Assembly (NCBI GenBank): GCA_964593805.1
Contig: CAZQHP010000001.1
Coordinates: 64,091 to 128,090 of the forward strand
Length of the DNA stretch: 64,000 nt
Direction of reading: 5' to 3'
Source: an uncultured Candidatus Saccharibacteria bacterium
GTDB lineage: Bacteria > Patescibacteriota > Saccharimonadia > Saccharimonadales > JBBQAJ01
Shown here: positions 3,961-49,186 of the stretch, in pieces
Numbering within the stretch: the stretch's first letter is position 1
How the letters are laid out: the number at the start of each line of letters is the position of its first letter
Notes under the pieces: model-generated
What the model was told of the DNA's origin: nothing
Seen by the model: the letters and a program-made list of their open reading frames with translations, nothing else
The model's database searches: none
Position numbers and translations under genes: made by a program

Positions 3961-4031
3961 CGTTACATTATAGCGTAGTAGTATTCACATTTTAGGCGCC
4001 AAAATTCATTAACTTTGCTATAACGATAATA

Positions 4032-7726: not shown

Positions 7727-7817
7727 GGAAGGGTCGCATAGTTGGTTTAGTGCGCTGGTCTCGAAAACCGGTAGGCCCGCAAGGGTCTCGAGGGTTCGAA
7801 TCCCTCCCCTTCCGCCA
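7727..7817 (+). tRNA. tRNA-Ser (anticodon CGA), CCA encoded
   Basis: GGAAGGG...CTGGT CTCGAAA ACCGG, a variable arm TAGGCCCGCAAGGGTCTC, then GAGGGTTCGAATCCCTC CCCTTCC G CCA. Confidence 0.9.
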
Positions 7818-7818
7818 G

Positions 7819-7843
7819 AAAAATCGCAATTATGGCGATTTTT
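7819..7843. terminator. Bidirectional hairpin terminator between tRNA-Ser (+) and comFC (-)
   Basis: AAAAATCGC aattatg GCGATTTTT forms a 9-bp stem with A-run and T-run flanks on both strands. Confidence 0.6.
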
Positions 7844-8516
7844 ATTGTTTTTGGGCGAAGGCTACGGCAGCAACGGATTTGGCGCCGGCTTGTTTAAGGG
7901 CTAGTGTCATGGCTTCTAGAGTAGAGCCGGTAGTTACTACGTCGTCCACAATCAAAATATCTCTGCCTTTGACCAGCCTTGGTTTGGTAACTACAAAAGT
8001 GTTTTTGAGCTGAGCCAAGCGCTTTTGACGGTTGGCGCCAACTTGCCGCGTTTGCAACAAATGGGTTACGGCGCGCACCGACATTAGGCCTCGTTTGCGG
8101 GCAATCGCCCGGGCCAGCAAAGCGGCGTGGTCATAACCGCGGGCGCGTACCCGGCTGGTGGCGGTTGGCACGGGGATTACCAGGCTAGCCAGGGGCAAAT
8201 AGGGCAGTACTTCGTCCATTGCTTCGGCGATAACTTGTACTGCTGCCTGTGCTCGTTCGTACTTGTAGCGGTGCAGCAGGGTTTTGGCATGGCCGTCGTA
8301 GTCGGTTCTTATCCAGACATGCCCTATGCGAGTTTGTTTTTTGCAGCGGTCGCAGACGGCAAAATTCGTGGTAATGCGGCGGCAACGGAAACAGCGGCTG
8401 GGCAGTTCTGGAAAAACGTCGGGCAAACACCAGTCGCAGACCAGCTTGCCCTCAGCTCCGCAGGCCAGGCAATTATGTGGAGCTATGGCAGAGAGCAAGG
8501 TGTCTAGTAGTGGCAT
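7842..8516 (-). CDS. comFC: ComF family protein (phosphoribosyltransferase-like competence protein)
   Basis: N-terminal Cys clusters (CLACG...CDWC, CFRC...CDRC) and a C-terminal PRTase motif ILIVDDVVTTGSTL. Confidence 0.85.
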   Translation of the reverse strand: MPLLDTLLSAIAPHNCLACGAEGKLVCDWCLPDVFPELPSRCFRCRRITTNFAVCDRCKKQTRIGHVWIRTDYDGHAKTLLHRYKYERAQAAVQVIAEAMDEVLPYLPLASLVIPVPTATSRVRARGYDHAALLARAIARKRGLMSVRAVTHLLQTRQVGANRQKRLAQLKNTFVVTKPRLVKGRDILIVDDVVTTGSTLEAMTLALKQAGAKSVAAVAFAQKQ

Positions 8517-8870: not shown

Positions 8871-9353
8871 ATGGCTCGAAGAAGCCGAGACGAAGATTTG
8901 TTGATGGAAGATGAGTTAACCGCAGCGTTTTTGGGCGAAGAAGATTTTGGCCCTGCGACTGATGACCAAACCGCTCCTACTGGTACTGCAACCGCAACTG
9001 CTGATGACTGGGAAGAAGAAGACGCCGTGCCCGGGCAACTGGCGGTAGATGTTTATGAAACCAAAGAACGCCTGGTAGTAAAAGGCCGCGTGGCCGGCGT
9101 AAACAAAAGCGACCTGGACGTCAGCATTGCCGACAATACGCTGAGCATTCGTGGCACGCTTTCCGCCGGCAACGAAGACGACGTAGAGAATTATTTTGTA
9201 CAAGAATGTTACTGGGGCGAATTCAGCCGTAGCATAGCTTTGCCCGTTCCGGTCAAAGAAGACGAGATTGAAGCCGTCCTAAAAGATGGCGTGCTGACAA
9301 TTAGCTTTACCAAAGTTAAGCAAGACAGCGTCAAAAAGATCCAAGTCCTTTAA
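8871..9353 (+). CDS. Hsp20/alpha-crystallin family small heat-shock protein
   Basis: Alpha-crystallin domain pattern (LAVDVYETKERLVVKGRVAGVNKSDLDVSIADNTLSIRG ... GEFSRSIALPVPV ... AVLKDGVLTISF). SD GGAGGG lies upstream. Confidence 0.88.
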   Translation: MARRSRDEDLLMEDELTAAFLGEEDFGPATDDQTAPTGTATATADDWEEEDAVPGQLAVDVYETKERLVVKGRVAGVNKSDLDVSIADNTLSIRGTLSAGNEDDVENYFVQECYWGEFSRSIALPVPVKEDEIEAVLKDGVLTISFTKVKQDSVKKIQVL

Positions 9354-9382
9354 GCTGAAAGCTTAAAGCTAAAAGTCAAAAG
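9352..9382. repeat. Left arm of the inverted repeat enclosing the four-helix-bundle gene
   Basis: AAGCTGAAAGCTTAAAGCTAAAAGTCAAAAG. The 18-nt core at 9365-9382 is the exact reverse complement of 9743-9760. Confidence 0.85.
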
Positions 9383-9390
9383 AGAAGACA

Positions 9391-9726
9391 GTGCGATTTG
9401 AAGATATAGTGGTTTGGGAAAAAGCCCGTGAACTTTGTAACGAAGTGTATCGGGCTTTTTCTGTTTGCAAGGATTTTGCGTTTCGCGACCAGATACAGAG
9501 GGCAGCCGTTTCGGTTATGAATAACATTGCAGAGGGCGCTGAACGTGCCACAGACAAAGAGTTACGACAATTTTTACATATTGCCAAAGGTTCTTGTGGT
9601 GAAGTCAGGTCGATGCTGTTTTTGGCTAGCGATCTTAAATATATCCAAGAGGCGGAATTCACACAACTTTTCGAGCGGTCAGAAGAAATCTCAAAAATGC
9701 TTGCCGGATTTATCAAAAAGCTCTAA
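9391..9726 (+). CDS. Four-helix-bundle protein (23S rRNA intervening-sequence protein / Avd-like family)
   Basis: Family pattern: VWEKARELCNEVY...FRDQIQRAAVSVMNNIAEGAER...FLHIAKGSCGEVRSML. Start codon is GTG. Confidence 0.85.
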   Translation: MRFEDIVVWEKARELCNEVYRAFSVCKDFAFRDQIQRAAVSVMNNIAEGAERATDKELRQFLHIAKGSCGEVRSMLFLASDLKYIQEAEFTQLFERSEEISKMLAGFIKKL

Positions 9727-9742
9727 CCATTTCTGATCAGAG

Positions 9743-9773
9743 CTTTTGACTTTTAGCTTTTGACTTTGAGCTT
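9743..9773. repeat. Right arm of the inverted repeat enclosing the four-helix-bundle gene
   Basis: CTTTTGACTTTTAGCTTTTGACTTTGAGCTT. It matches the reverse complement of the left arm at 27 of 31 positions. Confidence 0.85.
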
Positions 9774-9774
9774 G

Positions 9775-10206
9775 TTATTCAGTGGCCTTGGCAAGAACAA
9801 ATTTGACTACAACCTGAGCTAGTGCAACCACAACCAAGCCAATTATGGCGTACAGAATGGTGTTTTTGGCACCAGTTATGTTGCCGCTATCTCCACCAGA
9901 TGTAATGTACTTCAGACCACCAATGATAATCATGATGACCGAAACCACGCCCACGATTAGAGAAAATACATTGATAACCAGTTTTATGATTTGATCAACT
10001 CTACCGCCAGCTGCTGTGACGTCTGGTTGCGTACAAGTACTCGTACCAGCAGTTACCCCGCTAGTGCTGAGATCAACACCACAAGCTATCCCGCCGCTCA
10101 CGTCGTCAGTTGCTGCGTATACAGTTGCGACCGACATAGTAGCCGGCGCCAATAATAACGTTGCTAGTGATGCCGTTGTTAATAGTTTTTTTAGCTTTTT
10201 AATCAT
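9775..10206 (-). CDS. VirB2/TrbC-type T4SS pilin-like protein, paralogue 6 (last in operon)
   Basis: Signal peptide, a variable region with 2 Cys, then the conserved hairpin IMIIIGGLKYITSGGDSGNITGAKNTILYAIIGLVVVALAQVVV. Confidence 0.8.
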   Translation of the reverse strand: MIKKLKKLLTTASLATLLLAPATMSVATVYAATDDVSGGIACGVDLSTSGVTAGTSTCTQPDVTAAGGRVDQIIKLVINVFSLIVGVVSVIMIIIGGLKYITSGGDSGNITGAKNTILYAIIGLVVVALAQVVVKFVLAKATE

Positions 10207-10270
10207 TTTGGGGTGTGACCTTTCTTAAATTCTCTATCATTTATACCACAAACGCTTTATCAGATTCAAG

Positions 10271-10720
10271 CTACGGCGTGCAGCTAGTGGTCACTTTGCC
10301 GCCGCATTTAGGTAGAGCTGTTGATTTGGCGAGCACAAACTTTACTATCACCTGAGCCATAACAACTACCACCAAGCCGACTATGGCATAGAGAATGGTG
10401 TTTTTGGCGCTGGCAGTGTTGGAGCCTTCGCCTTGAGATAATATGTATTTGAGACCACCGACGATAATCATAATTATTGCCGCAACGCCTACAATCATGC
10501 TGAACACATTGATAGCTAATTTGAGAGTATTGTCCACATTTGGTCCGGGGACGGCAGTGTCACAATTGCCACTGTTGCCGGTACTGGCCTGCACTAGCGC
10601 CTCGCAGGCTTGGCTTTTGGGGTCAATCTGGGCGGCACGTACCTGTTTGCCAGAAAAACTTAGAAGGGTCGCCGTAAATACAAGTCCAATTACTGCAATA
10701 TGTATGATTCGTTTTAGCAT
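10271..10720 (-). CDS. VirB2/TrbC-type T4SS pilin-like protein, paralogue 5
   Basis: Signal peptide, 2 Cys in the variable region, hairpin IMIIVGGLKYILSQGEGSNTASAKNTILYAIVGLVVVVMAQ, and an extra C-terminal Cys pair (PKCGGKVTTSCTP). Confidence 0.8.
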   Translation of the reverse strand: MLKRIIHIAVIGLVFTATLLSFSGKQVRAAQIDPKSQACEALVQASTGNSGNCDTAVPGPNVDNTLKLAINVFSMIVGVAAIIMIIVGGLKYILSQGEGSNTASAKNTILYAIVGLVVVVMAQVIVKFVLAKSTALPKCGGKVTTSCTP

Positions 10721-10732
10721 TTCATCCTCATT

Positions 10733-11149
10733 TTACAATCTACTGACTGCCAAAGCTACTACAGCCCGAGCTATCACCACGATTACCAGCCCAATTACGG
10801 CAAACATTATAGTGTTTTTGGCCTTGTTTACCTTAGCACTGTCTCCGCTAGAACGTACATATTCAAACCCGCCAACTATTATGACAACTACGGCCGCTAT
10901 GCCGGTAATAAGCGCGAATATATTGGCAATCCTGGTTATCACGCCGTCCGTGCCGGTAATGGGGTTAGAGCCATCCGTAGAACAAACAACCGACTTCTGG
11001 CTTTGGCCGGTACTGTCGACTGCTTGCGGACAATCCTGTTTGACTTGACCAAATGGATCAAAGGCTGCTGCGCGGCTACCCGAAAAACCTATCACCAAGA
11101 ACAGAAAGGCTACGAACGATAAGCAAGCGGCAATTACGTATCTTTTCAT
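10733..11149 (-). CDS. VirB2/TrbC-type T4SS pilin-like protein, paralogue 4
   Basis: Signal peptide, 2 Cys in the variable region, hairpin VVIIVGGFEYVRSSGDSAKVNKAKNTIMFAVIGLVIVVIA. Confidence 0.8.
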   Translation of the reverse strand: MKRYVIAACLSFVAFLFLVIGFSGSRAAAFDPFGQVKQDCPQAVDSTGQSQKSVVCSTDGSNPITGTDGVITRIANIFALITGIAAVVVIIVGGFEYVRSSGDSAKVNKAKNTIMFAVIGLVIVVIARAVVALAVSRL

Positions 11150-11153
11150 TAAC

Positions 11154-11444
11154 TTATATTATGGCCCTTAGGAACACATTCACTATACCAAAAGCGCTGA
11201 AGGCAATCACCAAGCCAATCAGAGAATACATGATGATGTCTTTGGCTTTGCCCAATTTGTCCGGCTCCCCCTGCGATATCACGTACTTAAAGCCGCCATA
11301 CACCACACTGATAAACGCAATCCCCGCTAGTATGCCAAAAATCACATTGAATATAACTATAACCAACTTAGAATCTAGGCCAGCCTTTGGTAATGGACTT
11401 GTATCTATTGGTAATGCTGCAAGCAGTGCAAATATCAGCCCCAT
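11154..11444 (-). CDS. VirB2/TrbC-type T4SS pilin-like protein, paralogue 3 (minimal, 96 aa, no Cys)
   Basis: Hairpin ISVVYGGFKYVISQGEPDKLGKAKDIIMYSLIGLVIAFSA. The ATG abuts the upstream stop (TAG ATG). Confidence 0.78.
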   Translation of the reverse strand: MGLIFALLAALPIDTSPLPKAGLDSKLVIVIFNVIFGILAGIAFISVVYGGFKYVISQGEPDKLGKAKDIIMYSLIGLVIAFSAFGIVNVFLRAII

Positions 11445-11978
11445 CTAACCTCCTAATTTATTACCAATAAAAGCAACTAATGCCGTAGCGGTAACCACAA
11501 TACCAAGCCCGATTACCGAATTAACCAGAGTGGCCATAGCCGCTTCTATATTTTTGGGCTCGCCTTGGCTAGACATGTACTTATAGCCGCCCATAATTAT
11601 GAAGGCAACCGCAACCAACGCGCCCAAACGTAGCAAAATATCTATGATTGCCAAACCAATTTGTACAAGATGGTCGGTTAACTCACCGCCGATTATCCCG
11701 CATGTATTTTTAGTATTGTTACTGTCAATAAACGGATTGTCGGAAACTACTTCGCCATAGTCATCCCCAAAATATTTGTACCAACCAGGTAGAATACCCA
11801 GCAGTTTGTAGTCCTTGTCACACTTTATAGACCCAGCTGGTGCGGCAAATGCTGACTGGGCTGGGAGTATGCCAGTTATTGCTGGCAGGGCGGCAAGTAC
11901 AAGCCCGGCAGTTACAATTATGGCCAAAAGGACAATCTGGCGTTTTATGCTTTGTGCCAGATATTTCAGATATATCAT
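11445..11978 (-). CDS. VirB2/TrbC-type T4SS pilin-like protein, paralogue 2
   Basis: I moved the start to the ATG at 11978, which forms an ATGA overlap with the upstream stop. There are 2 Cys in the variable region and the hairpin IIMGGYKYMSSQGEPKNIEAAMATLVNSVIGLGIVV. Confidence 0.78.
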   Translation of the reverse strand: MIYLKYLAQSIKRQIVLLAIIVTAGLVLAALPAITGILPAQSAFAAPAGSIKCDKDYKLLGILPGWYKYFGDDYGEVVSDNPFIDSNNTKNTCGIIGGELTDHLVQIGLAIIDILLRLGALVAVAFIIMGGYKYMSSQGEPKNIEAAMATLVNSVIGLGIVVTATALVAFIGNKLGG

Positions 11979-12643
11979 AATATGCCCCCTGGCAACAGCC
12001 ATTGGGCAACAGCAAACAGCAGGCCGTATCCTACCAAAGTTAAAATAGCACTGAAAATGAGTTTTTTAGCCTTTTCTACCGCACCCGGATCGCTACCAGC
12101 CATTGAGTACTTAATACCGCCCACAATAATCATGCCGGTAACTACTATCCCGATTAGTGCACTTAGAAGTTTGATTGCGGTATTGATGTAGGTGAATAAG
12201 CCGCAAGCAGTGCTTTCTTGGCCTGTACAGGCAGTCCCGTGGGGCTGAGCTATACAGTTTTGTTTTTGTTCCGTCGTCCAGTCTTGAAAATCATCTGGTA
12301 AAGCAGCACAATCTAAGGGAGGGGCGGTCGAGTTTGGGGTAATGGCCGTGGGCAGAGGCGGTGGATTGCCAGTTGTATCGGTAAAATGCGCGTCTACTTG
12401 TCTCACACATTCAGCTATCGCATTATTATTGCCAGTGTTCGTCTCATAGCACGCCACGTTATATTTGTCTCGCTTGGAGCTTATGCAGTTTGCGATTTGG
12501 GTTGCGCCAGACCTGGGGTCGTCGCTACAAGTACCATGATCTGCTGACGCGGTTTGGCGACTCGGCGCAACAAACAGGGCAGACACAACTGCAACCAGAA
12601 CCACCAGCGCAAAAATTAATTTTTTGTGTTTTATTGATAACAT
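11975..12643 (-). CDS. VirB2/TrbC-type T4SS pilin-like protein, paralogue 1 (largest, 8-Cys ectodomain)
   Basis: Signal peptide, a roughly 140-aa variable region with 8 Cys, then the hairpin MIIVGGIKYSMAGSDPGAVEKAKKLIFSAILTLVGYGLL. Confidence 0.78.
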   Translation of the reverse strand: MLSIKHKKLIFALVVLVAVVSALFVAPSRQTASADHGTCSDDPRSGATQIANCISSKRDKYNVACYETNTGNNNAIAECVRQVDAHFTDTTGNPPPLPTAITPNSTAPPLDCAALPDDFQDWTTEQKQNCIAQPHGTACTGQESTACGLFTYINTAIKLLSALIGIVVTGMIIVGGIKYSMAGSDPGAVEKAKKLIFSAILTLVGYGLLFAVAQWLLPGGIL

Positions 12644-12829
12644 TTAACTAAACTATAATATCACTCCTTGCAAAAAACAAGGCTCTGCGCTACGACTCTG
12701 GCTTTAATTTGCAATGTGCGGATTCGCTTCAACCAAAGATTACGATTGCGCCTAAAAGTCGCAAACGACCTCTTGGCCAAGCCAAAGCTATCTTGTTTAT
12801 GGCTAGATTTTTTGCTTATATATAGGCAA

Positions 12830-15800
12830 ATGTATCGCAAATTGGTATCTCTTGTAGGCAGTGGGCTGATTTTGGTTTCAGTCTTTATGTCGCTGTTCGC
12901 TGCCGTACGCCCCATGCAGGCAAGCGCTACTTCGACGGAACCGCAGGACGAACAGAGGAGACTACTCGTTGCGTTTAAGTACTGTCTGAGCGATCAAAAA
13001 ATTGACGAAAGCGACAATGGCAACCCGGCTGAAGACTTTGCTGATATGTGGGATGGTGGCATTGATGGCTATAAGAAAGAGGACGTTGTGGTTGGGTTTG
13101 AACTTGAGGGTGATAACGGTGTTAAATCTTGTGAAACGAGCATTTTACCGGGGCTAAAAATTCTGGAACCTCAAATAACTACACCGGGTGCGGCCGAAAC
13201 TCGTTTGTTTGCTTTACTGGCCAATTCCGATGGGAAAGTTTTTAGAGCAAATAGGGATAAATTGGTCGCAAGAATAGACGACCAGATTAAATCTATGGGC
13301 TCCGACCCTAGGAAGGCATTTACCGCAAATCGCCTATCGCCGCTTATCACGCTTTGTTACGACATTAAAATAGACAAACCCTCCTACGAAGCGACAAATC
13401 AAAACTTTAGAGCTAAGTTCTTGGGAACACAATACTTTTTTGAGCACAAAAGCGATGCCGACGATGATAGCTATAAATGGCTCAAACAGGGGGCTATTGG
13501 GGAGAATGTTTTTCTGGGCGATATAAAACTAGGTTTTGAGTCATCGAAAAACGCGATAGGTAAGGGTGATTGGGATTCATTTGAAAGTGATTTCTACCCT
13601 TTTGGTTCGGACTTACAAAGTTTTACTAGTGGGCATGCCGGCAACAATGGTATTCTGGACTGTAAATTCATAAAAGAAAAAATGGAATCAGGCTTTTTCA
13701 CGGATGATGTTATATCTTCTGTGGATATAGATAAAGACATTGTAATAATTGGCGTAGACACCAACGGCGACGGCAAAGCCGATGTGGCACTTGATCCCGT
13801 AACCGTAGCCAGCGTAGATGCAGGTGGCGACACGCACGTGGATTGTCAAACTGGCGGGCTTTCTTTGAACCCTTTTACGCTAGCTGATAACGCCATTAGC
13901 TGGTTGCTGTGCCCTTTGCTTGATGGCGCTCAGGCGATTGTAAACACGGTTGGCGGCTGGGTGGTGGACCAGTTGGAATTTGATGTGGATCAATACCTTG
14001 TAGGACCGACAACCGATAAGAACGATGCAGAAATTTTCCCAGTCAAAGACGCCTGGAATGCCTTCAGGGTTATTTCGCTTTCACTCGTAATACTCGTGGC
14101 GCTGGCTGGCATATTAATGGGGAGTTTTATAGACGCTTATACTATAAAGAAGATACTGCCGCGCATGCTTATAGCCATAATTGCTATTTCGCTGTCGTGG
14201 GATCTGTTGGTGCTTGTTATAAGAATTACTAACTCGCTGGGTATTGCCGTCAGGTCAATGATAGATTTGCCATTCAATAGCCTGAACAATGCCGCCATAA
14301 ACCCGCTGGTTATTTTGGGTGGAGCAGGTGCCGCTACCGGGCTAACGACTATTTTGGGAGCACTAAGTCTTATTGGAACCGCGGCGCTGGCGGTACTTTT
14401 TGCGTTTATTTTCACGATACTGCGAGTTGGAGCAATCATTGCTTTGGTAATCTTTGCGCCGATAGCAATATTGTGCTGGATACTTCCAGGCACGCAAAAA
14501 GGCTGGAATTTCTGGCAAGAGGGCTTGATGGGAGCTTTGCTCATGTTCCCGATAGTAACGGCATTTTTGTCAATTGGTTCCGCTTTTGGGAAAATAATTT
14601 ATAACATTGAACCCAATAGCCCGCTCAACCAAACCATTGCCCTTATAGCCACCTATGCGCCATATTTCTTGATTCCCAAAGCCTTTAGCATGGCAGGCGG
14701 TATAGTTGGCAACCTTTCTGGCCAGCTAAATGATCGTGGTCGTGGCGCCTTTGACCGCCTCAAAAAATTCCGCCAAGACCAAGGCCAAAAACGCTGGGGT
14801 GATATCAAGGGTGGCAGATACTTTCACGGCGGCAATAAGGATAGTTTTAGAAGAAGAGTTAGTGGCATCGCACAAGGCGCCTCATTATTGCCTAATGCCG
14901 GACTTGGTCGCGATACAAGTAAATGGAAGGGTAAGTTGGATGACGCACGGTCCGTAGCCAGCCAAACCTATGCGTCAAAGGCTACGCAAGATGACGCCGC
15001 GAAGCTAGCTAGAGACAAAGATGACGCTATTATGAGAGCATTCATAGAATCTGGAGGTGACTTAGATGAAGCTGAAAAAGTATTAGTATCTAGTCAAGGT
15101 ACCGCCGATCTTTACGGTGGAGGTAAAAAAGCAGATGGAACATTATGGGAAGAAGGGACTGAGGCGTATAAACAAAACTGGGAGGCAAATAGAGGAGCTC
15201 GTGAATCTGCGTTACGTGGAATAGAGGCACTTAAAAAAGATTATGGCGCAGATACCGCAAAGCTTATAGCGGCAAGAACTCTTTTCAGGAGCTCGACCGC
15301 GTTTTCTTACGAGAATGGATTTGGTGAAATGGCGGAAATAATCAGAAAAGTAGCCACCAAGAGCGATGGTACAGTTGATACGCTTTTGGCTACACAGTTA
15401 CTTGAGGAAGGAAACGCTGCTCAAAATGCCGCTGGACGAAACGATGTGGGAGGTGCTAGCTTCTCTGTAGGTATAAAAGCAATTAACAATGTTGGTCGTC
15501 AAAAGATTAATGCTGACGGAACTCTATCCACTGAAATATATACTTCTCAAGATGCCACGCATGATGCTTGGGAATCTGCTTTTGGCGGCAAACCACCAGA
15601 CGAGGTCTTCCGAGGTGGGAAAAAGAAAAATGGTCAAGCAGTTTCTGGTTATTTGTATGGGTATACAGATGGTGCGGGCAATCATCACAAGGGTGAGGTA
15701 GAGATTCGGATGGAAAAACTTCAAGCAGATACCAGTCTAACTGAAGAACAGAGAGCTCAAGAAGCAACTCGCATATTGCAATGGGAAGAATCGTATCATG

Positions 15801-16192
15801 TTGCTGCATCTCGCTCTTCTGCTGATATTCGCGAAGTTATGGGTGCATCTTTCGGTGAAAAGTTTGATCATGATCTGTTGCCTCCAGAAATGCGTGAGAA
15901 AATCTTTACTAAACAAGTACCTGTTTTGCGGAATGGCGTCCCAGTAATGAAACAAGATCCAACTAAGCCAAAAGGGTTCATGATACCCGAAACAACTACT
16001 CAGTATGATCCAGATCTTGAGCTAACTCGTGTTGAGGTATTTGATAAACTTCGTGGTACCAAAGAATGGCAATTATATGCCAAAGAGTATGGGTATGCGG
16101 CGGCGGCGGCAGGAGCTAATGTCGCTGTTGCAGGCATAGAACCACCCCCAGTTGATCCAGGAGCTACTGGTGCAGGCGGAGGAGCACCTTAA
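12830..16192 (+). CDS. Giant VirB6/TrbL-like polytopic T4SS membrane protein (about 1120 aa) with large N- and C-terminal extensions
   Basis: I moved the start to the ATG at 12830 (MYRKLVSLVGSGLILVSVFMSLFAAVRPMQASA is a signal/anchor). The central block has at least 6 hydrophobic helices (AFRVISLSLVILVALAGILMG ... IALIATYAPYFLIPKAF). A hydrophilic tail of about 480 aa ends in an Ala/Gly/Pro-rich stretch. Confidence 0.7.
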   Translation: MYRKLVSLVGSGLILVSVFMSLFAAVRPMQASATSTEPQDEQRRLLVAFKYCLSDQKIDESDNGNPAEDFADMWDGGIDGYKKEDVVVGFELEGDNGVKSCETSILPGLKILEPQITTPGAAETRLFALLANSDGKVFRANRDKLVARIDDQIKSMGSDPRKAFTANRLSPLITLCYDIKIDKPSYEATNQNFRAKFLGTQYFFEHKSDADDDSYKWLKQGAIGENVFLGDIKLGFESSKNAIGKGDWDSFESDFYPFGSDLQSFTSGHAGNNGILDCKFIKEKMESGFFTDDVISSVDIDKDIVIIGVDTNGDGKADVALDPVTVASVDAGGDTHVDCQTGGLSLNPFTLADNAISWLLCPLLDGAQAIVNTVGGWVVDQLEFDVDQYLVGPTTDKNDAEIFPVKDAWNAFRVISLSLVILVALAGILMGSFIDAYTIKKILPRMLIAIIAISLSWDLLVLVIRITNSLGIAVRSMIDLPFNSLNNAAINPLVILGGAGAATGLTTILGALSLIGTAALAVLFAFIFTILRVGAIIALVIFAPIAILCWILPGTQKGWNFWQEGLMGALLMFPIVTAFLSIGSAFGKIIYNIEPNSPLNQTIALIATYAPYFLIPKAFSMAGGIVGNLSGQLNDRGRGAFDRLKKFRQDQGQKRWGDIKGGRYFHGGNKDSFRRRVSGIAQGASLLPNAGLGRDTSKWKGKLDDARSVASQTYASKATQDDAAKLARDKDDAIMRAFIESGGDLDEAEKVLVSSQGTADLYGGGKKADGTLWEEGTEAYKQNWEANRGARESALRGIEALKKDYGADTAKLIAARTLFRSSTAFSYENGFGEMAEIIRKVATKSDGTVDTLLATQLLEEGNAAQNAAGRNDVGGASFSVGIKAINNVGRQKINADGTLSTEIYTSQDATHDAWESAFGGKPPDEVFRGGKKKNGQAVSGYLYGYTDGAGNHHKGEVEIRMEKLQADTSLTEEQRAQEATRILQWEESYHVAASRSSADIREVMGASFGEKFDHDLLPPEMREKIFTKQVPVLRNGVPVMKQDPTKPKGFMIPETTTQYDPDLELTRVEVFDKLRGTKEWQLYAKEYGYAAAAAGANVAVAGIEPPPVDPGATGAGGGAP

Positions 16193-16220
16193 ACAACCAA
16201 AGATGTATACTTACTGATAT

Positions 16221-17306
16221 ATGGCTACGTACAAGGTAATTCAGGATATTGAGTCGGAAGACAAACTGCTGGGGCCGCTTACGCTGAGGCAATTTGTCTA
16301 TGCGGCTATTGTTGTGATGATGGGTTTCCTGGCTTTCAAACTGGCGGCGGTCAGCTCGCTGTTTGTTGTCCCGTTTATCTTGCCTATGGCATTTTTTAGC
16401 CTTTTGGCCGCGCCGTTCGGCCACGACCAATCGTCTGAGGTTTGGCTGCTGGCAAAAATTGGCTTTTTTCTAAAGCCGCGGCGGCGCATCTGGGACCAGG
16501 GCGGTATGCAAGAACTGGTGACCATAACGGCGCCTAAAAAACTGGAGCAGCACCTGACGGACGGACTGACTCAAATGGAAGTCAAAAGCCGTTTGCAAGC
16601 GCTGGCCAACACCATAGACAGCCGCGGCTGGGCCGTCAAAAACGTCAATGTGAATCTGTTTAACCAGCCGTCTTATTTGACCAGCGGCACAGGCTCTGAC
16701 CGTTTGGTAGATGGCAGCAGCCTGCCCCAAGCCGTGCCAAATTATGAAATCGTCGCGGCCGATGACATATTGGACGAAACGAGCAACCCGACCGCCCAGC
16801 ATCTGGACGCTATGATTAGCCAATCCGAACAGGCCCACCGCGAAACGCTGGTAGCGGCTGTGCGAAACGGTCCCCAGCCAGCAGCGCCGCCGGCAGATTA
16901 CTGGTTTATGAATCAGTCTGCCAGCCCTCCACAGCCAAAACCCGGCTATGCTACGTTTGACGGCGGCTCAACCATCGCGCCCGGGGCAACCCCGGCAGAT
17001 GATAGGCAAGTATCAGACTCTGGGACGGCAGAGCAGGAACTGCTAAACCAAATTCACCGTGAAAACTCCAGGCCAAACCCAGCCTACGGCCATATGCGCG
17101 TGCTTGATCCAGCCGGCGCTAAACAAACAAGCCAAGCCCCGCCAAGTGCCAACACTACCCCTATGCGGGCGCGGCAAGACAACGCCAAAGCCGACCTGGC
17201 ACGACTAGCGGCCAACGACGACTTAAACGTTTCTACTATTGCCAGAGAAGCCAACAAAGCCGCCAAACAGCCCCCGGATGACGAAGTAGTTATTAGCTTG
17301 CGCTAA
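16221..17306 (+). CDS. PrgI/VirB3-like membrane protein with a long low-complexity C-terminal extension
   Basis: The N-terminus VIQDIESEDKLLGPLTLRQFVYAAIVVMMGFLAFKLAAVSSLFVVPFILPMAFF resembles the PrgI-family pattern (acidic lead-in, LTLRQF, two TM helices). The rest is Pro/Ala/Gln-rich. Confidence 0.65.
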   Translation: MATYKVIQDIESEDKLLGPLTLRQFVYAAIVVMMGFLAFKLAAVSSLFVVPFILPMAFFSLLAAPFGHDQSSEVWLLAKIGFFLKPRRRIWDQGGMQELVTITAPKKLEQHLTDGLTQMEVKSRLQALANTIDSRGWAVKNVNVNLFNQPSYLTSGTGSDRLVDGSSLPQAVPNYEIVAADDILDETSNPTAQHLDAMISQSEQAHRETLVAAVRNGPQPAAPPADYWFMNQSASPPQPKPGYATFDGGSTIAPGATPADDRQVSDSGTAEQELLNQIHRENSRPNPAYGHMRVLDPAGAKQTSQAPPSANTTPMRARQDNAKADLARLAANDDLNVSTIAREANKAAKQPPDDEVVISLR

Positions 17307-17307
17307 T

Positions 17308-17340
17308 GAGTACTGAGCCGAGAGTCCTGAGTCCGGAGTC
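17308..17340. repeat. Arm of the inverted repeat enclosing the second four-helix-bundle gene
   Basis: GAGTACTGAGCCGAGAGTCCTGAGTCCGGAGTC matches the reverse complement of 17711-17746 at 29 of 33 positions. The perfect 15-nt core is GAGAGTCCTGAGTCC (17320-17334). Confidence 0.85.
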
Positions 17341-17689
17341 AAGAGGGAAGGCTTCGGATAAATCCTGCTAGTAACTTTGAAACTTCATCTGTCTTTTGTA
17401 GAAGTTCTGCTTGTTTTTCACGTTTTAGATAACCTAGATCTGGAGCAACCAAGAGCATTGATTCTACTTCTGCGGCAGAACCCTTGGCAATAGACAAAAA
17501 GTTTTTGAATGACTTGTCACTCCTTTTGGCATAACCTTCCGCTATATTGTTCATAATTGATATTGAAGCTCTTTGGATTTGATCCTTGAAGCCATAGTCC
17601 CGACAGTTTTGAAAGGATTTATAGATATCGACTGTCAAATCGTGCGCTTTCTGCCATGCCAATATATCTTTGAATGATCGAATAGCCAT
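17339..17689 (-). CDS. Four-helix-bundle protein (23S rRNA intervening-sequence protein / Avd-like family), second copy
   Basis: ILAWQKAHDLTVDIYK...FKDQIQRASISIMNNIAEGYAKRS...FLSIAKGSAAEVESML. It is a clear paralogue of the 9391-9726 protein. Confidence 0.85.
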   Translation of the reverse strand: MAIRSFKDILAWQKAHDLTVDIYKSFQNCRDYGFKDQIQRASISIMNNIAEGYAKRSDKSFKNFLSIAKGSAAEVESMLLVAPDLGYLKREKQAELLQKTDEVSKLLAGFIRSLPS

Positions 17690-17710
17690 TTCCCATATTC
17701 TAGCATTTTC

Positions 17711-17746
17711 CCGTACTCTGGACTCAGGACTCTCAGCTCTGTACTC
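17711..17746. repeat. Opposite arm of the inverted repeat enclosing the second four-helix-bundle gene
   Basis: CCGTACTCTGGACTCAGGACTCTCAGCTCTGTACTC. The core GGACTCAGGACTCTC is at 17720-17734. Confidence 0.85.
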
Positions 17747-17760
17747 TAAACGGCTTCGCC

Positions 17761-17769
17761 TGGTATACT
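17761..17769 (+). promoter_or_regulatory. Candidate extended -10 promoter (TGgTATACT) for the downstream T4SS genes
   Basis: TGGTATACT lies 57 nt upstream of the ATG at 17826. The near-palindrome ATGCAAATGCAT (17787-17798) lies between the box and the start codon. No convincing -35. Confidence 0.3.
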
Positions 17770-17825
17770 AAAGCGTAACTGTAATCATGCAAATGCATAC
17801 AAGACTTTAGGTGGGCCAAACATTC

Positions 17826-18743
17826 ATGGATCCAAACAATACACCCCCATACAATCCGCAACAATCACCGCCAGGACCAGCTGTTGGCGGGCAGCCGTAT
17901 ATTGCGCCTGAGGCTCCATTACCCAGCGGCAGCTATAACCCAAACATCCCTTTGCAACCGCTGGCGCAGTACGGCGCCAACCAAGCCCCGCCGGTAAACG
18001 CGCCGCACCTGAAGTCCAACCCAAACAGCACTCAAAACACCCTGCAGATTGCCGAAATCCGCGACGGGATTGTGATTATGAATGACGGCAGTTTTCGTTC
18101 GGTTATCATGGTAAAATCTATCAACTTTGACCTCATGAGCCCTGATGAGCGTGAAGCTGTGGAGTTTAGCTACCAGGGCTTTTTGAATTCACTCTATTTC
18201 CCCATTCAGATTTTTGTGCGTTCGCAAAAAGTAGATTTGCGGCCGTACATTGACCGCCTGGACAAAATTCGTTCCGAGCACGACAACATGCTGCTGGCGC
18301 TGCTTATGGAAGATTACATTGGCTTTATTGCCGACTTGAGCCAGCAGACGAACATTATGGACAAGAAATTTTACGTTGTTATCCCGTACTTCCCGGTAGC
18401 GGACATCACCAAGGCCATAACCCAAAGCAAAAACTTTTTTAGCGGCCTGAAAGGGCTGTTCAACAACAAGCAGCAGCACGTCACCATAAACGAAGCCGAC
18501 CTGAACAAGGCCAAAGACGAATTGCGCAACCGTGTGCAGGCCGTCCTGGCGGGGCTAATGCAGTGTTCTGTGCAGGGGTTGCCGCTAGATACGCAGGAAC
18601 TGATTGAGCTGTATTACGACACTTACAACCCAGACACTGCTACCAGGCAGCAGCTCAAAAATTTTAGTGATTTATCCGCGCCAGTGGTAGAAAAAGGCGA
18701 AGGCGCGGCTTACCAGCCAAATCTGGATAGGGAGCTACAATGA
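17826..18743 (+). CDS. T4SS-associated protein: Pro-rich N-terminus plus a domain resembling the non-ATPase N-terminal region of VirB4-family proteins
   Basis: I moved the start to the ATG at 17826. The pattern LQIAEIRDGIVIMNDGSFRSVIMVKSINFDLMSPDEREAVEFSYQGFLNSLYFPIQIFVRSQKVDLRPY recalls N-termini of monoderm VirB4/TraE-type proteins. It has no Walker motifs. Confidence 0.6.
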   Translation: MDPNNTPPYNPQQSPPGPAVGGQPYIAPEAPLPSGSYNPNIPLQPLAQYGANQAPPVNAPHLKSNPNSTQNTLQIAEIRDGIVIMNDGSFRSVIMVKSINFDLMSPDEREAVEFSYQGFLNSLYFPIQIFVRSQKVDLRPYIDRLDKIRSEHDNMLLALLMEDYIGFIADLSQQTNIMDKKFYVVIPYFPVADITKAITQSKNFFSGLKGLFNNKQQHVTINEADLNKAKDELRNRVQAVLAGLMQCSVQGLPLDTQELIELYYDTYNPDTATRQQLKNFSDLSAPVVEKGEGAAYQPNLDRELQ

Positions 18744-18844
18744 TTTCATCATTTCAAAGTTCAAATATTTGTGATTTGAGTTTTGTTTTTTCTTTGTTAT
18801 CTGCTGCTTGGCATTTGAATTTTACCTCCGAAGGAGGTCTCTAG
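18740..18844 (+). CDS. Candidate 34-aa micro-ORF filling the whole gap between two T4SS genes
   Basis: Its ATG overlaps the upstream stop (ATGA), and its TAG stop is immediately followed by the virB4 ATG (TAGATG). Peptide: MISSFQSSNICDLSFVFSLLSAAWHLNFTSEGGL. This is speculative. Confidence 0.35.
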   Translation: MISSFQSSNICDLSFVFSLLSAAWHLNFTSEGGL

Positions 18845-20770
18845 ATGGCATTTGGCAAACAAAACCCTCAGCTTGACCCAGTGGCACTGGCGCAGCAGCA
18901 GCAAATGCGCGAGCAACAAGAAGTGCAAGCCGCTTTCCAAAAAGGCGTTACGGCCCTGCGCGATTTTATAGCTCCAAGTTCATTGGTTTATAGTGCCAGT
19001 CATTTTCAGATTGGTACGCGCATAGCACGAACTTACTACATATACGGTTTTCCCAGGCAGGTTTTTACCGGCTGGCTGTCCAGTATGGTCAATATGGATG
19101 AGGTTATAGACCTGTCTATGTTTGTCTATCCGGTTGAAAGCCAGGTAGTACTAGAAAACTTGCGCAAAAAAGTTTCTCAGCTGGAAGCGGGCCTGCAAAT
19201 AGATGCCGAAAAAGGCCGCGTGCGCGACCCAGGCAAACAAGCAGCCATATCCGACGCTGAAGAAATGCGCGACAAGCTGCAGGTGGGTGAAGAGCGTTTT
19301 TTCCGCTTTGGTATTTATTTCACAATCTACGGTTCCTCCATGGATGAACTGGAGTTTGTGTCTCATAAAGTAGAATCCGTGCTGGGCCAGCAATTGGTGT
19401 ATTCCAAACCAGCCACTTCCCAGCAAGAACAGGGATTCAACAGTACTGTGCCGCAGTTTAGCGACCAGTTGCAGATAAAGCGCAATTTCAGCACCGGTGC
19501 ACTCAGCACCACTTTTCCGTTTACCAGCGCCGACTTAACTCAAGACACTGGAATCCTGTATGGCATAAATATGCACAATTCGGGGCTGGTCATCTTTGAC
19601 CGTTTCTCACTGGAAAATGGTAACTCAGTAGTGTTTGCCAAATCTGGCGCCGGCAAAAGTTTTACCGTCAAACTGGAAGCTTTACGCAGCATGATGTACG
19701 GCACAGAAATTTTCATAATTGACCCGGAAAACGAATACCAGCGCATGTCTGAAGCCGTAGGCGGCGCTTACGTTCGCCTTAGTTTAAATTCAAACGTCCG
19801 TATTAATCCGTTCGATTTGCCAAAAGTCGTGGACTCCGAGGAAGCCGACAACGCGCTTCGCAGCAACCTGATCACGCTGCATGGCTTGCTAAGGCTGATG
19901 ATGGGCGGCGCCCAGGCTCAAATGGCCGCAGCAGGCACCGGCGGCCAACCAGTCTACGCCCCAGCACTAACGCCTGCCGAAGAGGCAGATTTAGACTCGG
20001 CGCTGATAGAAACTTACGCCAAAGCCGGCATAACCAACGACCCGCTGACGCACAATTCCCAGCCGCCAACCGTGAACGATCTTTATGATACGCTGCTCCA
20101 TATGGGCGGCACGGGGCCGCAGCTGGCCCAGCGCCTGCGCAAATATACCACCGGAACCTTCGCTGGCATTTTCAGCCAGCAAAGCAACATAGACATCAAC
20201 AACCCGCTGGTGGTGTTTAACATTCGCGATTTGGAAGATGAACTGCGCCCCGTGGCCATGTACATCGTCCTGAACTTTATCTGGAACAAAACCAAGTCCG
20301 ACCAGAAAAAGCGCCTGTTGATAGTAGACGAAGCTTGGCAGTTGATGAAATACGAAGACTCGGCAAACTTTTTGTTCAGCTTGGCCAAACGCGCCCGTAA
20401 GTACAACTTAGGCATTACTACCATCACCCAGGACGTGGAAGATTTCATGGGCTCGCGCATGGGCCGGGCAATCGTGGCCAACGCCAGTTTGCAAATACTG
20501 CTCAAGCAGTCCAGTTCCGCGGTTGACGTCCTTTCAGACACTTTCAAACTGACCAGCGAGGAGAAAAAGCGTCTCAGCCAGTTCCCGGTAGGCCAGGGCT
20601 TATTCTTTGCCGGCCAAAACCACGTGCACATCCAGATTACTGCCAGCCCCACAGAAACCGGCCTAATCACCACCAACCCCCAGCAAGTACAAGCCATGGA
20701 GCAACAGGGCGAGTTGAATCAGCCTCAGGGAACCATAGACCTGCAAAACCGCTTAACGCCAGGTTTATAA
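18845..20770 (+). CDS. virB4: VirB4-family T4SS ATPase
   Basis: Walker A is AKSGAGKSFT, Walker B is RLLIVDEAWQL, and a late TTITQDVEDF motif is present. The N-terminal FIAPSS...YYIYGFPRQVFTGWLSSMV pattern is typical of VirB4. SD GAAGGAGG lies upstream. Confidence 0.88.
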   Translation: MAFGKQNPQLDPVALAQQQQMREQQEVQAAFQKGVTALRDFIAPSSLVYSASHFQIGTRIARTYYIYGFPRQVFTGWLSSMVNMDEVIDLSMFVYPVESQVVLENLRKKVSQLEAGLQIDAEKGRVRDPGKQAAISDAEEMRDKLQVGEERFFRFGIYFTIYGSSMDELEFVSHKVESVLGQQLVYSKPATSQQEQGFNSTVPQFSDQLQIKRNFSTGALSTTFPFTSADLTQDTGILYGINMHNSGLVIFDRFSLENGNSVVFAKSGAGKSFTVKLEALRSMMYGTEIFIIDPENEYQRMSEAVGGAYVRLSLNSNVRINPFDLPKVVDSEEADNALRSNLITLHGLLRLMMGGAQAQMAAAGTGGQPVYAPALTPAEEADLDSALIETYAKAGITNDPLTHNSQPPTVNDLYDTLLHMGGTGPQLAQRLRKYTTGTFAGIFSQQSNIDINNPLVVFNIRDLEDELRPVAMYIVLNFIWNKTKSDQKKRLLIVDEAWQLMKYEDSANFLFSLAKRARKYNLGITTITQDVEDFMGSRMGRAIVANASLQILLKQSSSAVDVLSDTFKLTSEEKKRLSQFPVGQGLFFAGQNHVHIQITASPTETGLITTNPQQVQAMEQQGELNQPQGTIDLQNRLTPGL

Positions 20771-23416: not shown

Positions 23417-24603
23417 TGTTACGCCGACTTTTGTCCTGCTTGGCAATTGTATTGATACTTATGCCTTCCGTAGCGCAAGCACAACTTACTCAGGGCGATC
23501 TGGGATCAATACTAGGTGGTACGGAATTCTACGATCCAGTTGCCGAAAATTGCTCGGCGGTAGGTACAACTGCTCTGTCCGGCAGCGACAAAGCCGCTAA
23601 AGTTTACTACTATTTGACTGGCAGGGGGCTGTCTCCCGAACAAGCCGCCGGTGTTATGGGGAATCTTGAACCGGAATCCGGATTTATACCCGATAACCAA
23701 GAAAATAATATACCTTTCCCAAATGGCGGGTGGGGTATTGCCCAGTGGACCGCCGGACGGCGCGATTCACTTGTGTCTGCCGTTTTAGCGGTCGGGCTGC
23801 CGTATACGAACGAACAAACCCCGCCAGACCAAATGGATGCATTATTAGCCTTTGAATTAGACTATCTTTACAACGAATCAAATGGACGCCAATCCAGAAC
23901 ATATCCGGATATAAAGGAGTGGGAGGGGTTAAAACGGCAGACTACTGCCAAAGACGCGGCTTATTACTGGGAATATAATTTTGAGCGTCCGAAAGTAGCT
24001 GGACAACAAATTAGAATCGATGCCGCTGAAAAGTTTTTGGCGCAGTTTGGCGGGGCAACAAGTTCTGGCGCAATCGCAACGGGCTGTAGTGCTTCGCTGG
24101 GAGGAACTGCGGGCGCTAGCGCAGACCAAGATACTTCTGCGATGCAGTGCCCTGCCGGTACAACCGATGCGGGCGTTGTACAAGACTATGGGCCAGGCAG
24201 GGTTCCAACTGTCAAAATCCGGCTGTGTGATCTGCCGACAGTTACCCAAGTGAACGCCAGCATTACCCAAGCCGCGCTAGATATGGTTACCGCCATAGAA
24301 AAGGCCGGTCTTGAGGTTTCTGGCGATGCATGGCGATCATATGACGAACAGGCGGCTTTAAGGGACAGCAACGGCTGCCCAGACGTTGACATCAGTCCAT
24401 CAAGTTCATGTAGAGTTCCTACAGCTAAGGCTGGTTCTGGTACACATGAAGTGGGATTAGCAATTGACTTCAACGACATGTGCTTCCCAAATGCAACCTG
24501 TCCTTCTAGCGCGGCCTGGCGGTGGTTGATGGAAAATGGCGGTACGTACGGATTCAAGAAAAACTCCGACGAGGCCTGGCATTGGTCTCCAACAGGCAAC
24601 TAG
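23416..24603 (+). CDS. Secreted bifunctional cell-wall hydrolase: lysozyme-like domain plus VanY/M15-type peptidase domain (VirB1 analogue)
   Basis: Signal peptide MLRRLLSCLAIVLILMPSVAQAQ. AAGVMGNLEPESGF...GWGIAQWTAGRR is a phage-tail-lysozyme-like pattern. The C-terminal SGDAWRSYDEQ...GSGTHEVGLAIDF...EAWHW shows the HxxxxxxD...H zinc ligands of M15 peptidases. There is a 1-nt overlap with the upstream stop. Confidence 0.75.
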   Translation: MLRRLLSCLAIVLILMPSVAQAQLTQGDLGSILGGTEFYDPVAENCSAVGTTALSGSDKAAKVYYYLTGRGLSPEQAAGVMGNLEPESGFIPDNQENNIPFPNGGWGIAQWTAGRRDSLVSAVLAVGLPYTNEQTPPDQMDALLAFELDYLYNESNGRQSRTYPDIKEWEGLKRQTTAKDAAYYWEYNFERPKVAGQQIRIDAAEKFLAQFGGATSSGAIATGCSASLGGTAGASADQDTSAMQCPAGTTDAGVVQDYGPGRVPTVKIRLCDLPTVTQVNASITQAALDMVTAIEKAGLEVSGDAWRSYDEQAALRDSNGCPDVDISPSSSCRVPTAKAGSGTHEVGLAIDFNDMCFPNATCPSSAAWRWLMENGGTYGFKKNSDEAWHWSPTGN

Positions 24604-27280: not shown

Positions 27281-27297
27281 AGCCTTATTGTATATGT

Positions 27298-28389: not shown

Positions 28390-28639
28390 AATAAGTTATT
28401 CTCCTTTGTAATACTTGTTATTAGGGCTGTGGATAGTGTGTATAAATAAGCTAGTCTCATTATAAAACGCATAAAAAAGTAGTGCATAAAGCTGTGCCAA
28501 GCGCTCGGACAAGCTGCTTACAAACCCAGGACTTATCCGCAAGAAGCTTGCTGCCAAAACCACCTGTGGGAAAGCGCGGGTAGTTGCCCCCAACTTATAC
28601 AAGCACTTAGCGCCCGCTCGTAAACAGCTTATGGACACG
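28390..28639. other. dnaA-dnaN spacer with DnaA-box-like 9-mers and an AT-rich stretch (candidate oriC half with unwinding element)
   Basis: TGTGGATAG (28428-28436), TTATCCGCA (28533-28541), TGTGGGAAA (28565-28573), TTATGGACA (28629-28637). An AT-rich run spans about 28437-28490. Confidence 0.55.
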
Positions 28640-39069: not shown

Positions 39070-39156
39070 ATTAGCCGGCAACCTTCTAAACAATTAGTAT
39101 AATAGGTGGGGTTTGTTAAAATAGACCCATCTGAAGCATAAATTAAAGGGAGCATA

Positions 39157-41085: not shown

Positions 41086-41163
41086 ATACTTAGGTTACAG
41101 CAGGATTCAGGCTTCACCAAGTCTGATTGCCCCAGGAGTGAAATACAGGTAAAATGAGCTGAA

Positions 41164-46507: not shown

Positions 46508-46583
46508 ATTAGTATATTCTAACGAAACATAGGCACATCACAAAGAAAAGACGGTCGCACGGCTGACTTTTGGAGTAGTCAGG

Positions 46584-48548: not shown

Positions 48549-48552
48549 GTCC

Positions 48553-49089: not shown

Positions 49090-49186
49090 CTAACAGTGTT
49101 AATGATACCACAAATAAGCATAAGTTTCAATAGTCAAAACACTAAAAAAAGACTTATTAAGCCAACACAGTATAAAATAAATACCA

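Follow-up and report, generated by a model that had tools for sequence, protein, structure and literature searches.

Six small genes lie in tandem on the minus strand at positions 9775-12643 of a 64,000-nucleotide stretch of DNA from an uncultured Candidatus Saccharibacteria bacterium (GenBank assembly GCA_964593805.1, contig CAZQHP010000001.1, positions 64,091 to 128,090; hereafter, the window). They probably constitute the pilin operon of a chromosomal type IV secretion system (T4SS) located close to the replication origin, with one gene, T1, for the major pilin and five genes, T2 to T6, for minor pilins. The names run from the promoter-distal to the promoter-proximal end of the operon, T6 being the gene nearest to that of a VirB6-like membrane protein. 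Comparison across Saccharimonadales resolves the six genes into as many ancient orthologous types, arranged in the fixed order T6-T5-T4-T3-T2-T1. We take T1 to be the major subunit because it is the most constrained of the six, has a promoter-like motif of its own, and is the type that is duplicated in larger arrays.

The array as such is already known (10.1101/258137, PMC10633639, PMC12102498, PMC12857230). A preprint of 2018 on TM7x (McLean et al., 10.1101/258137) describes a syntenic array of 4-6 small VirB2-related proteins with signal peptides in Saccharibacteria. Transposon sequencing (Tn-seq) in Candidatus Southlakia epibionticum ML1, published in 2023, scored all six genes SEML1_0014-0019 as essential (Wang et al., PMC10633639, Table S1). 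A survey of 2025 counts, in 383 Patescibacteria assemblies, 441 arrays with 2-11 pilin genes each and a mean within-array identity of 25%, finds them to be abundant in Saccharimonadia and located near virB4, and suggests that they confer versatility towards different host strains (Quinonero-Coronel et al., PMC12102498). Both interpretations offered in the preliminary description of this DNA, i.e., a set of major and minor pilins or a repertoire of surface domains tuned to partner cells, are thus in print. What is new is incremental, and consists of the positional orthology, the even parity of the cysteines, the promoter-like motif ahead of T1, and the T5+T4 and T6+T5 gene fusions, all of which are, as far as our searches show, unreported in the literature searched; in particular, term searches of the full text of PMC12102498 and 10.1101/258137 produced no mention of positional orthology, Cys parity, a T1 promoter or fusions.

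Six ancient types in a fixed order

We gathered 80 Saccharimonadales loci via an alignment of VirB6-like homologues, and searched all their open reading frames (ORFs) with a hidden Markov model derived from the six C-terminal hairpins. All relatives found in this way belong to Saccharibacteria/Saccharimonadales, and the closest VirB6-like protein among the retrieved loci of GTDB species representatives is 41% identical to the one in the window. The array is present in almost every locus that reaches far enough upstream, and six genes is the usual number. In 38 clean six-gene arrays, where the median lengths of T1 to T6 are 140, 134, 134, 97, 142 and 202 aa, the best BLAST match of a protein in another genome occupies the same array position for 224 of the 228 proteins. 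The ectodomains, i.e., the regions between the signal peptide and the hairpin, give the same result when used alone, with the best match at the same position in 35-38 of 38 cases for positions 1, 2, 3, 5 and 6. In all remaining loci that were classified unit by unit, the order is likewise 6-5-4-3-2-1, and the extra copies found in larger arrays are almost always copies of T1, of which there may be up to four. Turnover of copy number and paralogue identity between related genomes, of the type proposed for Bartonella and Anaplasma, was not observed.

These observations bear directly on the idea that the six paralogues are a variable repertoire of interchangeable VirB2 variants, serving different host surfaces or antigenic variation. 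The paralogues are indeed very divergent within the genome, with hairpin identities of 19-68% and no BLAST match between ectodomains, and array sizes of 5-9 occur, as a repertoire would have it; however, the positional orthology and the invariant gene order, the near-confinement of copy-number change to T1, and the essentiality scored for all six genes in S. epibionticum growing on a single host all speak against it. We consider the repertoire quite improbable. The preliminary description had itself named homology and conservation of the ectodomains across strains as an observation at odds with a repertoire, and position by position this is what we found. Its other suggestion, of a major-plus-minor pilin set, is favoured by the fixed orthologous types in fixed order and by the essentiality of all six genes in S. 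epibionticum.

Gene fusions provide another line of evidence. T5 and T4 are a single fused gene in seven loci (L011, L014, L024, L029, L035, L040 and L047, with L029 sitting in the complete genome CP025011), and T6 and T5 in six (L027, L032, L041, L044, L051 and L077), with one more T6+T5 fusion among the database proteins (P0029). The fusion proteins have a consistent four-helix topology, and the T6+T5 fusions have a linker in place of the T5 signal peptide; thus, they are not simple stop-codon artefacts. In the window, the stop codon of T5 abuts the start codon of T4 in the same frame. The fusions indicate that T6 and T5, as well as T5 and T4, are direct physical neighbours, and, as they join different types, argue that the pilin types act together and not as alternatives.

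Relation to VirB2 and TrbC pilins

All six ORFs are present as previously described, and share a C-terminal module of two helices; this module matches the T4SS_pilin family (PF18895) in 6/6 proteins, at 30.8-47.5 bits against a gathering cut-off of 26.6 bits. Public gene callers report the identical six genes with the identical Pfam label, the fifth of them in the 177-aa version (the T5 ORF is open up to 12002, which corresponds to 185 aa). Two hydrophobic helices and a short polar loop can be seen in the sequences of all six proteins, and the earlier hairpin motif is upheld over 416 related domains, with the consensus GG.kY.TS.GD(P/S)....AK.TI.YA.IGL. The TrbC/VirB2 family proper (PF04956) gives weak sub-threshold matches to 3/6 pilins in the window, and matches 48 of the 61 T1 orthologues at E<=1e-3, the best at 8.4e-7; these matches point to a relation with TrbC/VirB2 at the superfamily level, not to strict family membership. 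The designation as VirB2-type pilins is therefore sustained at the level of family by PF18895, by the T4SS neighbours and by the T1 orthologues, but not by the TrbC cut-off. Sub-threshold matches to the NCBIfam model of the pilin-like protein of Mycoplasma integrative conjugative elements were seen in all six.

T1 consists of a signal peptide, an ectodomain of ~35 aa with a Cys pair, and the two-helix hairpin. The distal three genes, T1-T3, share a plan with a ~35-residue stretch containing one Cys pair, so that the previously asserted dissimilarity of the ectodomains, correct for BLAST comparison within the genome, has to be tempered by this common plan and by the recognisable orthologues that each ectodomain has elsewhere. 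The ectodomain of T5 is ~55 aa long, with one Cys pair and an aromatic LGIxPWYxY motif, and that of T6, the most variable of the set, is ~110 aa long with 8 Cys. T4 lacks an ectodomain, Cys residues and a classical signal peptide (there is neither a basic N-terminal region nor an AxA cleavage site), and its short N-terminus carries a conserved LP motif, found also in its orthologues. YidC is encoded in the same window, at 31161-32099.

The genes are joined by coupled junctions, in agreement with the preliminary description: the TAG of T5 is followed by the ATG of T4 with a 0-nt gap at 11444/11445, T6 and T5 overlap by ATGA at 11975-11978, and the remaining gaps are of 4 nt (T4/T3), 12 nt (T3/T2) and 64 nt (T2/T1), of which the last had gone unremarked. 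The similarity of the two promoter-distal genes at the DNA level also holds, extending over 197 nt at 71%, with a 38-nt core (9833-9870 vs 10371-10408) at 89%; their hairpins are 68% identical.

Constrained hairpins and uneven ectodomains

Evolutionary rates were obtained from one genome pair, the window and its close relative L083 (Logan assembly), at synonymous divergence (dS) of about 0.5-2. T1 is 99% identical to its L083 counterpart, with a ratio of nonsynonymous to synonymous rates (dN/dS, or omega) of 0.02 at dS 0.78, and is conserved more than Hsp20 (96%), ComF (91%) or PrgI (89%); the identities of T2 to T6 are 87%, 74%, 85%, 77% and 62%, respectively. The hairpins are under strong purifying selection, with omega <=0.07 in 6/6 pilins. 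The ectodomains of T1 and T2 are conserved too, at 94-97%, and the fastest-evolving ectodomains are those of T3, T4 and T6, with omega of 0.26-0.53. In T3, identity amounts to 46% over the ectodomain (omega 0.48) and to 86% over the hairpin (omega 0.07); in T6, the hairpin is 99% identical and the ectodomain 43%, and the N-terminal half of the latter cannot be aligned at all. We considered, and rejected, a recent origin of this T6 pattern by mosaicism or recombination: dS of the T6 hairpin is 1.4, and, therefore, the hairpin is old and constrained, not recently exchanged. The VirB6-like protein, at 67% identity to its L083 orthologue (dN/dS 0.30), is conserved less than any pilin hairpin; its N-terminal part of ~340 residues carries conserved cysteines, for example in HVDCxTGG, in the alignment of VirB6-like homologues, and it may be co-evolving with the variable pilin ectodomains.

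A repertoire of variants would account for the quick change of T3, T4 and T6 between close relatives and for the unalignable half of the T6 ectodomain, yet T1 and T2 are highly conserved with their ectodomains included. Tuning to partner surfaces, as proposed in the preliminary description, is not supported for the whole set, and is retained in a reduced form for the ectodomains of T6, T3 and T4. Among the six, the T6 ectodomain is the likeliest to contact the host cell, because it is the largest, the most Cys-rich and the fastest-evolving. T6 has just 8 database homologues at E<=1e-3, and T1 has 4395 at E<=1e-5.

Hypervariability of T6 could also be attributed to a diversity-generating retroelement, with the nearby four-helix-bundle genes of the 23S_rRNA_IVP family (hereafter, IVP) as accessory factors, one of which, at 9391-9726, is weakly similar to bAvd, an accessory protein of such retroelements (E=0.0025). 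However, there is no template-repeat-like copy of the T6 region within 9300-17800 and no reverse transcriptase among the scanned neighbouring ORFs, on which grounds the retroelement is effectively refuted; moreover, T6 varies in its N-terminal part, through insertions and deletions rather than adenine-specific substitutions, and IVP genes are absent from most related loci. We regard this explanation as extremely improbable.

A promoter-like motif ahead of T1

Across loci, T2 and T1 are separated by a median of 72 nt, whereas all other junctions are about 0-10 nt. In the window, the gap contains TTGAAT at 10269-10264 and, after 15 nt, an extended -10 element, TGGTATAA, at 10248-10241, as well as a ribosome-binding site, AAGAAAGG. 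The motif was recognised by comparing the gaps across loci: the T2-T1 gap holds TGnTATAA in 36 of 38 loci, where the background rate would give 0.41, and the motif lies 25-44 nt upstream of the T1 start codon, followed by a GAAAGG-type ribosome-binding site. TGnTATAA occurs just nine times in the 128 kb of both strands of the window, and four of these sites (4016, 6332, 7709 and 10248) are directly upstream of two tRNA-Ser genes, an ORF at 4032, and T1. TGnTATAA seems to serve this organism as its usual strong promoter element. An mRNA started from the site at 4016 would be almost leaderless. A generic promoter and terminator scan, the counts of which were no higher than in shuffled sequence, did not list the site in the T2-T1 gap. 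Conservation of the motif suggests that T1 has its own promoter.

Paired cysteines

The preliminary description reported even Cys counts in each ectodomain and an extra C-terminal pair in T2, and both are as claimed. The positions are 42/58 in T1, 39/53 and 139/147 in T2, 40/56 in T3 (with an additional Cys at residue 9, inside the signal peptide), and 61/101 in T5 by the numbering of the 185-aa version. Among the 38 six-gene arrays, the non-zero ectodomain counts are even in 184 cases and odd in 7, and some of the odd ones may stem from crude ectodomain boundaries. The ectodomain count is exactly two for T1, T2, T3 and T5 in 34-36 of the 38 genomes each (T5 in 34), T4 has none in 36/38 orthologues, and T6 orthologues have from 2 to 22, the number being even in 37/38; the C-terminal pair of T2 is found in 5/38 orthologues. 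At the same time, the spacing between the two Cys varies, and Cys positions shift between close relatives, as in T3. In L083, T4 (7790-8113) has a 10-residue insertion, TCDPSGQCNP, that brings in two Cys at once. Parity has thus been kept through many independent changes, as disulfide pairs predict; the even counts are not due to chance, and fit disulfide-paired ectodomains. Paired cysteines are known in another Saccharibacterial filament, solved by cryo-electron microscopy (cryo-EM).

Pilus subunits or channel components

An AlphaFold2 (AF2) model of T1, made with 61 orthologues, is a helical hairpin with an overall predicted local distance difference test score (pLDDT) of 79, consisting of helices 63-102 and 107-142 (pLDDT 84-93); the Cys loop is poorly defined. 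The model of T6, with 8 sequences, has a pLDDT of 64 and is too weak to interpret. The best hairpin-type match of both models in Foldseek is the conjugation pilus of Aeropyrum pernix, 8dfu (E=3.3 and 7.7, probability 0.51 and 0.41), and the T-pilus, 8exh, is matched at E=9.1; short helical hairpins are poorly discriminated by such comparison. The predicted fold agrees with a VirB2-like pilin, but does not set it apart from other possibilities. The profile of the T1 alignment, compared with PDB sequences, found nothing relevant, its sole match being a chance one to cytochrome bd subunit II. An hhalign comparison of the same alignment to an A. tumefaciens VirB2 sequence gave no match, and carries little weight with such an insensitive single-sequence template.

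The products might, alternatively, not be filament subunits at all, and serve as Sec-exported components of a T4SS channel or stalk, or as effectors, which is how a TM7x transcriptome preprint refers to the array genes ('putative effector genes'). T4, without signal peptide and ectodomain, fits such a role, as do the lack of any sighted pilus and the non-significant structure searches. Two long hydrophobic helices, on the other hand, make soluble secreted effectors unlikely, and the PF18895 and TrbC matches are to families of pilins; furthermore, conjugation depends on PrgF of pCF10, a comparable small two-helix protein, whose modelled pilus is backed by mutagenesis and chemical labelling. A non-filament role is, in our opinion, unlikely. 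The Pam pilus described in a preprint of 2026 is a different filament, with an immunoglobulin fold.

Several points weigh against an operon of one major and five minor pilins, and are best taken together. A filament of array proteins has not been observed in any Patescibacterium, according to PMC12857230. Fixed stoichiometry and gene fusions would suit a membrane-embedded hetero-oligomer as well as a pilus. None of the window proteins reaches the gathering cut-off of PF04956 (27.9 bits), the best being at 20.2 bits, E=7e-4, and Foldseek comparison of the T1 and T6 models with PDB found nothing at E<=0.001, solved conjugative pilins included. Essentiality of T6 to T2 in the Tn-seq data may be inflated by polar effects on downstream genes. 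The rate figures are indicative only, because they come from one genome pair near dS saturation. The boundaries of signal peptides and ectodomains are crude, and the putative T1 promoter is known as a conserved motif rather than as a mapped transcription start.

A model of assembly

With T1 as the major pilin, the proteins would be exported by Sec and their signal peptides cleaved, T4 excepted, whereupon the hairpins would reside in the membrane and the N-terminal ectodomain would face outwards. The machine made of the VirB6-like, VirB3-like and VirB4 proteins would then extract the pilins and polymerise them into a filament in which the inter-helix loop lines the lumen and the short, disulfide-stapled ectodomains decorate the outside. 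T1 would be the abundant shaft subunit; T6 to T2 would be minor pilins, present at fixed stoichiometry in a priming, tip or base complex, where they may be neighbours roughly in the order of their genes.

More tentatively, the pilus may consist wholly of VirB2-type paralogues, with the gene order being the order of assembly: the disulfide-rich, fast-evolving T6 at the tip, in contact with the host, T5-T2 as adaptor layers, and T1, with its own promoter, as the shaft, so that the minor types would fill the role played by the unrelated VirB5 in Gram-negative systems. This is possible at best, but, if true, a priming complex of minor pilins would have evolved independently inside the VirB2 family, and T6 would be a predictable determinant of host range.

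Few systems are known to be essential for the epibiotic life of Saccharibacteria, which are ultrasmall and live on other bacteria, and the T4SS with its pilin array is one of them. In a fixed, ordered and non-redundant set there is a testable structural model to replace the host-range versatility suggested in print. It comprises four parts, namely, the T1 shaft with its own promoter; T6, T5 and T4 as neighbours; disulfide-stapled ectodomains; and a variable, host-facing T6. It gives concrete targets for experiments in the genetically tractable S. epibionticum ML1, and also for modelling or cryo-EM.

Comparison with known systems

In canonical T4SSs, such as those of Agrobacterium and RP4, there is one pilin gene and an unrelated tip protein, VirB5. 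Agrobacterium VirB2 and RP4 TrbC resemble the array proteins in having a signal peptide, two hydrophobic helices and a short polar loop, and in their linkage to virB3, virB4 and virB6; the difference is in the single pilin gene of these VirB2/VirB5 systems versus six paralogues in the window. In type IV pili and type II secretion pseudopili, an abundant major subunit is joined by low-abundance paralogues that share its assembly module, come from the same operon, and together make up an ordered priming or tip complex. The minor pilins of these two systems would be functional analogues of those in the array, with an unrelated fold and assembly machine.

The closest match to the window is the locus of S. 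epibionticum ML1, in which SEML1_0014-0019 are likewise six tandem PF18895 genes near dnaA, with a divergent VirB6-like gene at one end and Hsp20 plus ComF at the other. The synteny matches over SEML1_0013-0021, and essentiality of the array for epibiotic growth is known from this strain only. The length pattern is similar (132, 185, 103, 126, 127 and 138 aa; PMC10633639, Table S1), except that the first gene is of 132 aa, as against 222 aa in the window, and a second VirB6-like gene and an NTF2-like gene are found where the window has IVP cassettes (see below). Other catalogued Patescibacterial arrays, too, are tandem divergent pilin genes near virB4; PMC12102498 and 10.1101/258137 stress variability and host-range versatility, whereas the array in the window consists of fixed, ordered types. 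Several tandem divergent virB2 copies are found also in other host-dependent organisms, Bartonella and Anaplasma phagocytophilum, as cited in PMC12102498, but there the paralogues are thought to vary between strains, for antigenic or host-range reasons, and here types and order are fixed.

According to a preprint of late 2025, conjugation systems of Gram-positive bacteria, too, have a VirB2-like protein, PrgF (bioRxiv 10.64898/2025.12.18.695078). By description, it resembles the array pilins in its small size, its two helices and the location of its gene near virB6, in a monoderm system of MPF-FATA type, and, being essential and modelled as a pilus on a VirB6 pentamer, sets a precedent for VirB2-like pilins in monoderm T4SSs. 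The plasmids inspected for PrgF differ from the window in that one such protein only on each modelled clearly as a pilus, and in having no array and no Cys-paired ectodomain.

Genomic context

The features of the array and of the adjoining T4SS cluster are listed in Table 1. The six genes constitute a Saccharibacterial T4SS pilin array, defined as at least two tandem PF18895 genes beside T4SS genes near the origin. The VirB6-like gene is transcribed divergently from the pilin operon, and adjoins the array almost without exception among those of the 80 loci that reach far enough upstream; in the window, homologues of VirB6, PrgI and VirB4 are all within 9 kb of the array. In the divergent intergenic region, TGATATTAT is read 11 nt ahead of the T6 ATG and might act as a promoter element. 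Hsp20, ComF and tRNA genes make up the opposite flank. Directly after the T4SS cluster come recF, dnaN and dnaA (26234-30007), with rnpA, yidC and jag further on, which places the cluster at the replication origin.

Table 1. Pilin array and associated T4SS features, in coordinates of the window
Feature	Positions	Strand	Evidence and remarks
T1 pilin, 143 aa	9775-10206	-	PF18895, 47.5 bits; promoter-distal gene
Intergenic gap T2-T1, 64 nt	10207-10270	-	TTGAAT, extended -10, ribosome-binding site
T2 pilin, 149 aa	10271-10720	-	PF18895, 41.9 bits; TrbC E=7e-4
T3 pilin, 138 aa	10733-11149	-	PF18895, 38.8 bits
T4 pilin, 96 aa	11154-11444	-	PF18895, 41.3 bits
T5 pilin, 177 aa from ATG at 11978	11445-11978	-	PF18895, 36 bits
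T6 pilin, 222 aa	11975-12643	-	PF18895, 30.8 bits; first gene of the operon
Divergent intergenic region, T6 to VirB6-like gene	12644-12829	.	presumably promoters of both operons
VirB6-like polytopic membrane protein, 1120 aa	12830-16192	+	precomputed Pfam PF19590 TrbL_3; ORF open from 12668
PrgI (VirB3-like)	16221-17306	+	PF12666, 39.6 bits vs cut-off 27
TrsD / VirB4 N-terminal-domain-like	17811-18743	+	NCBIfam TrsD E=2.9e-6, below cut-off; precomputed PF26593 TraC-like
VirB4-like ATPase	18845-20770	+	NCBIfam NF045971 (CD1110 family), 346 bits vs cut-off 325; PF19044, 96 bits
Cell-wall hydrolase (lysozyme + VanY peptidase), VirB1-like role	23416-24603	+	PF18013, 86.8 bits; PF02557, 35.7 bits

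The T4SS resembles the conjugation machinery of Gram-positive bacteria, and its VirB4-like ATPase passes the cut-off of a model of a clostridial family, NF045971. The VirB6-like and TraC-like assignments are those of precomputed public annotation (PF19590 and PF26593), the local Pfam scan having given no match. VirB4 appears to be split over two genes (17811-20770), one for a 310-aa protein similar to TrsD and to the N-terminal domain, and another for a 641-aa ATPase. Two other proteins of the cluster, of 878 and 535 aa (20780-23416 and 24622-26229), have no Pfam or NCBIfam match, and the former has none among PDB sequences either. No VirB5 homologue was recognised here, and Pfam and NCBIfam scans of the window proteins recognised no relaxase or coupling protein. 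As these two proteins have not been recognised in S. epibionticum either, the system probably does not conjugate DNA.

Two IVP genes, ~50% identical to each other, are located at 9391-9726 (+) and 17339-17689 (-). Each is flanked by inverted repeats of 31-32 nt, at 9352-9382 / 9743-9773 (87%) and 17308-17339 / 17715-17746 (91%), respectively. Of the related loci, only a few (L003, L005, L039, L081 and the close relative L083) have IVP genes, and these occupy roughly comparable intergenic sites. Each gene with its long flanking stem has the look of a small inserted cassette, located outside rRNA; the stem may be likened to that of the rRNA intervening sequences from which the 23S_rRNA_IVP family takes its name.

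Beyond the origin region, just past rnpA-yidC-jag, there is a gene for an IS200-like Y1 transposase (32660-33274), followed by one for a 926-aa protein with a GDSL lipase domain (33341-36121). After the latter comes a long surface-polysaccharide cluster (37981-53372), with glycosyltransferases, GDP-mannose dehydratase-type enzymes, a Wzm/Wzt ABC exporter, and a 654-aa protein that contains a mannose-binding lectin domain.

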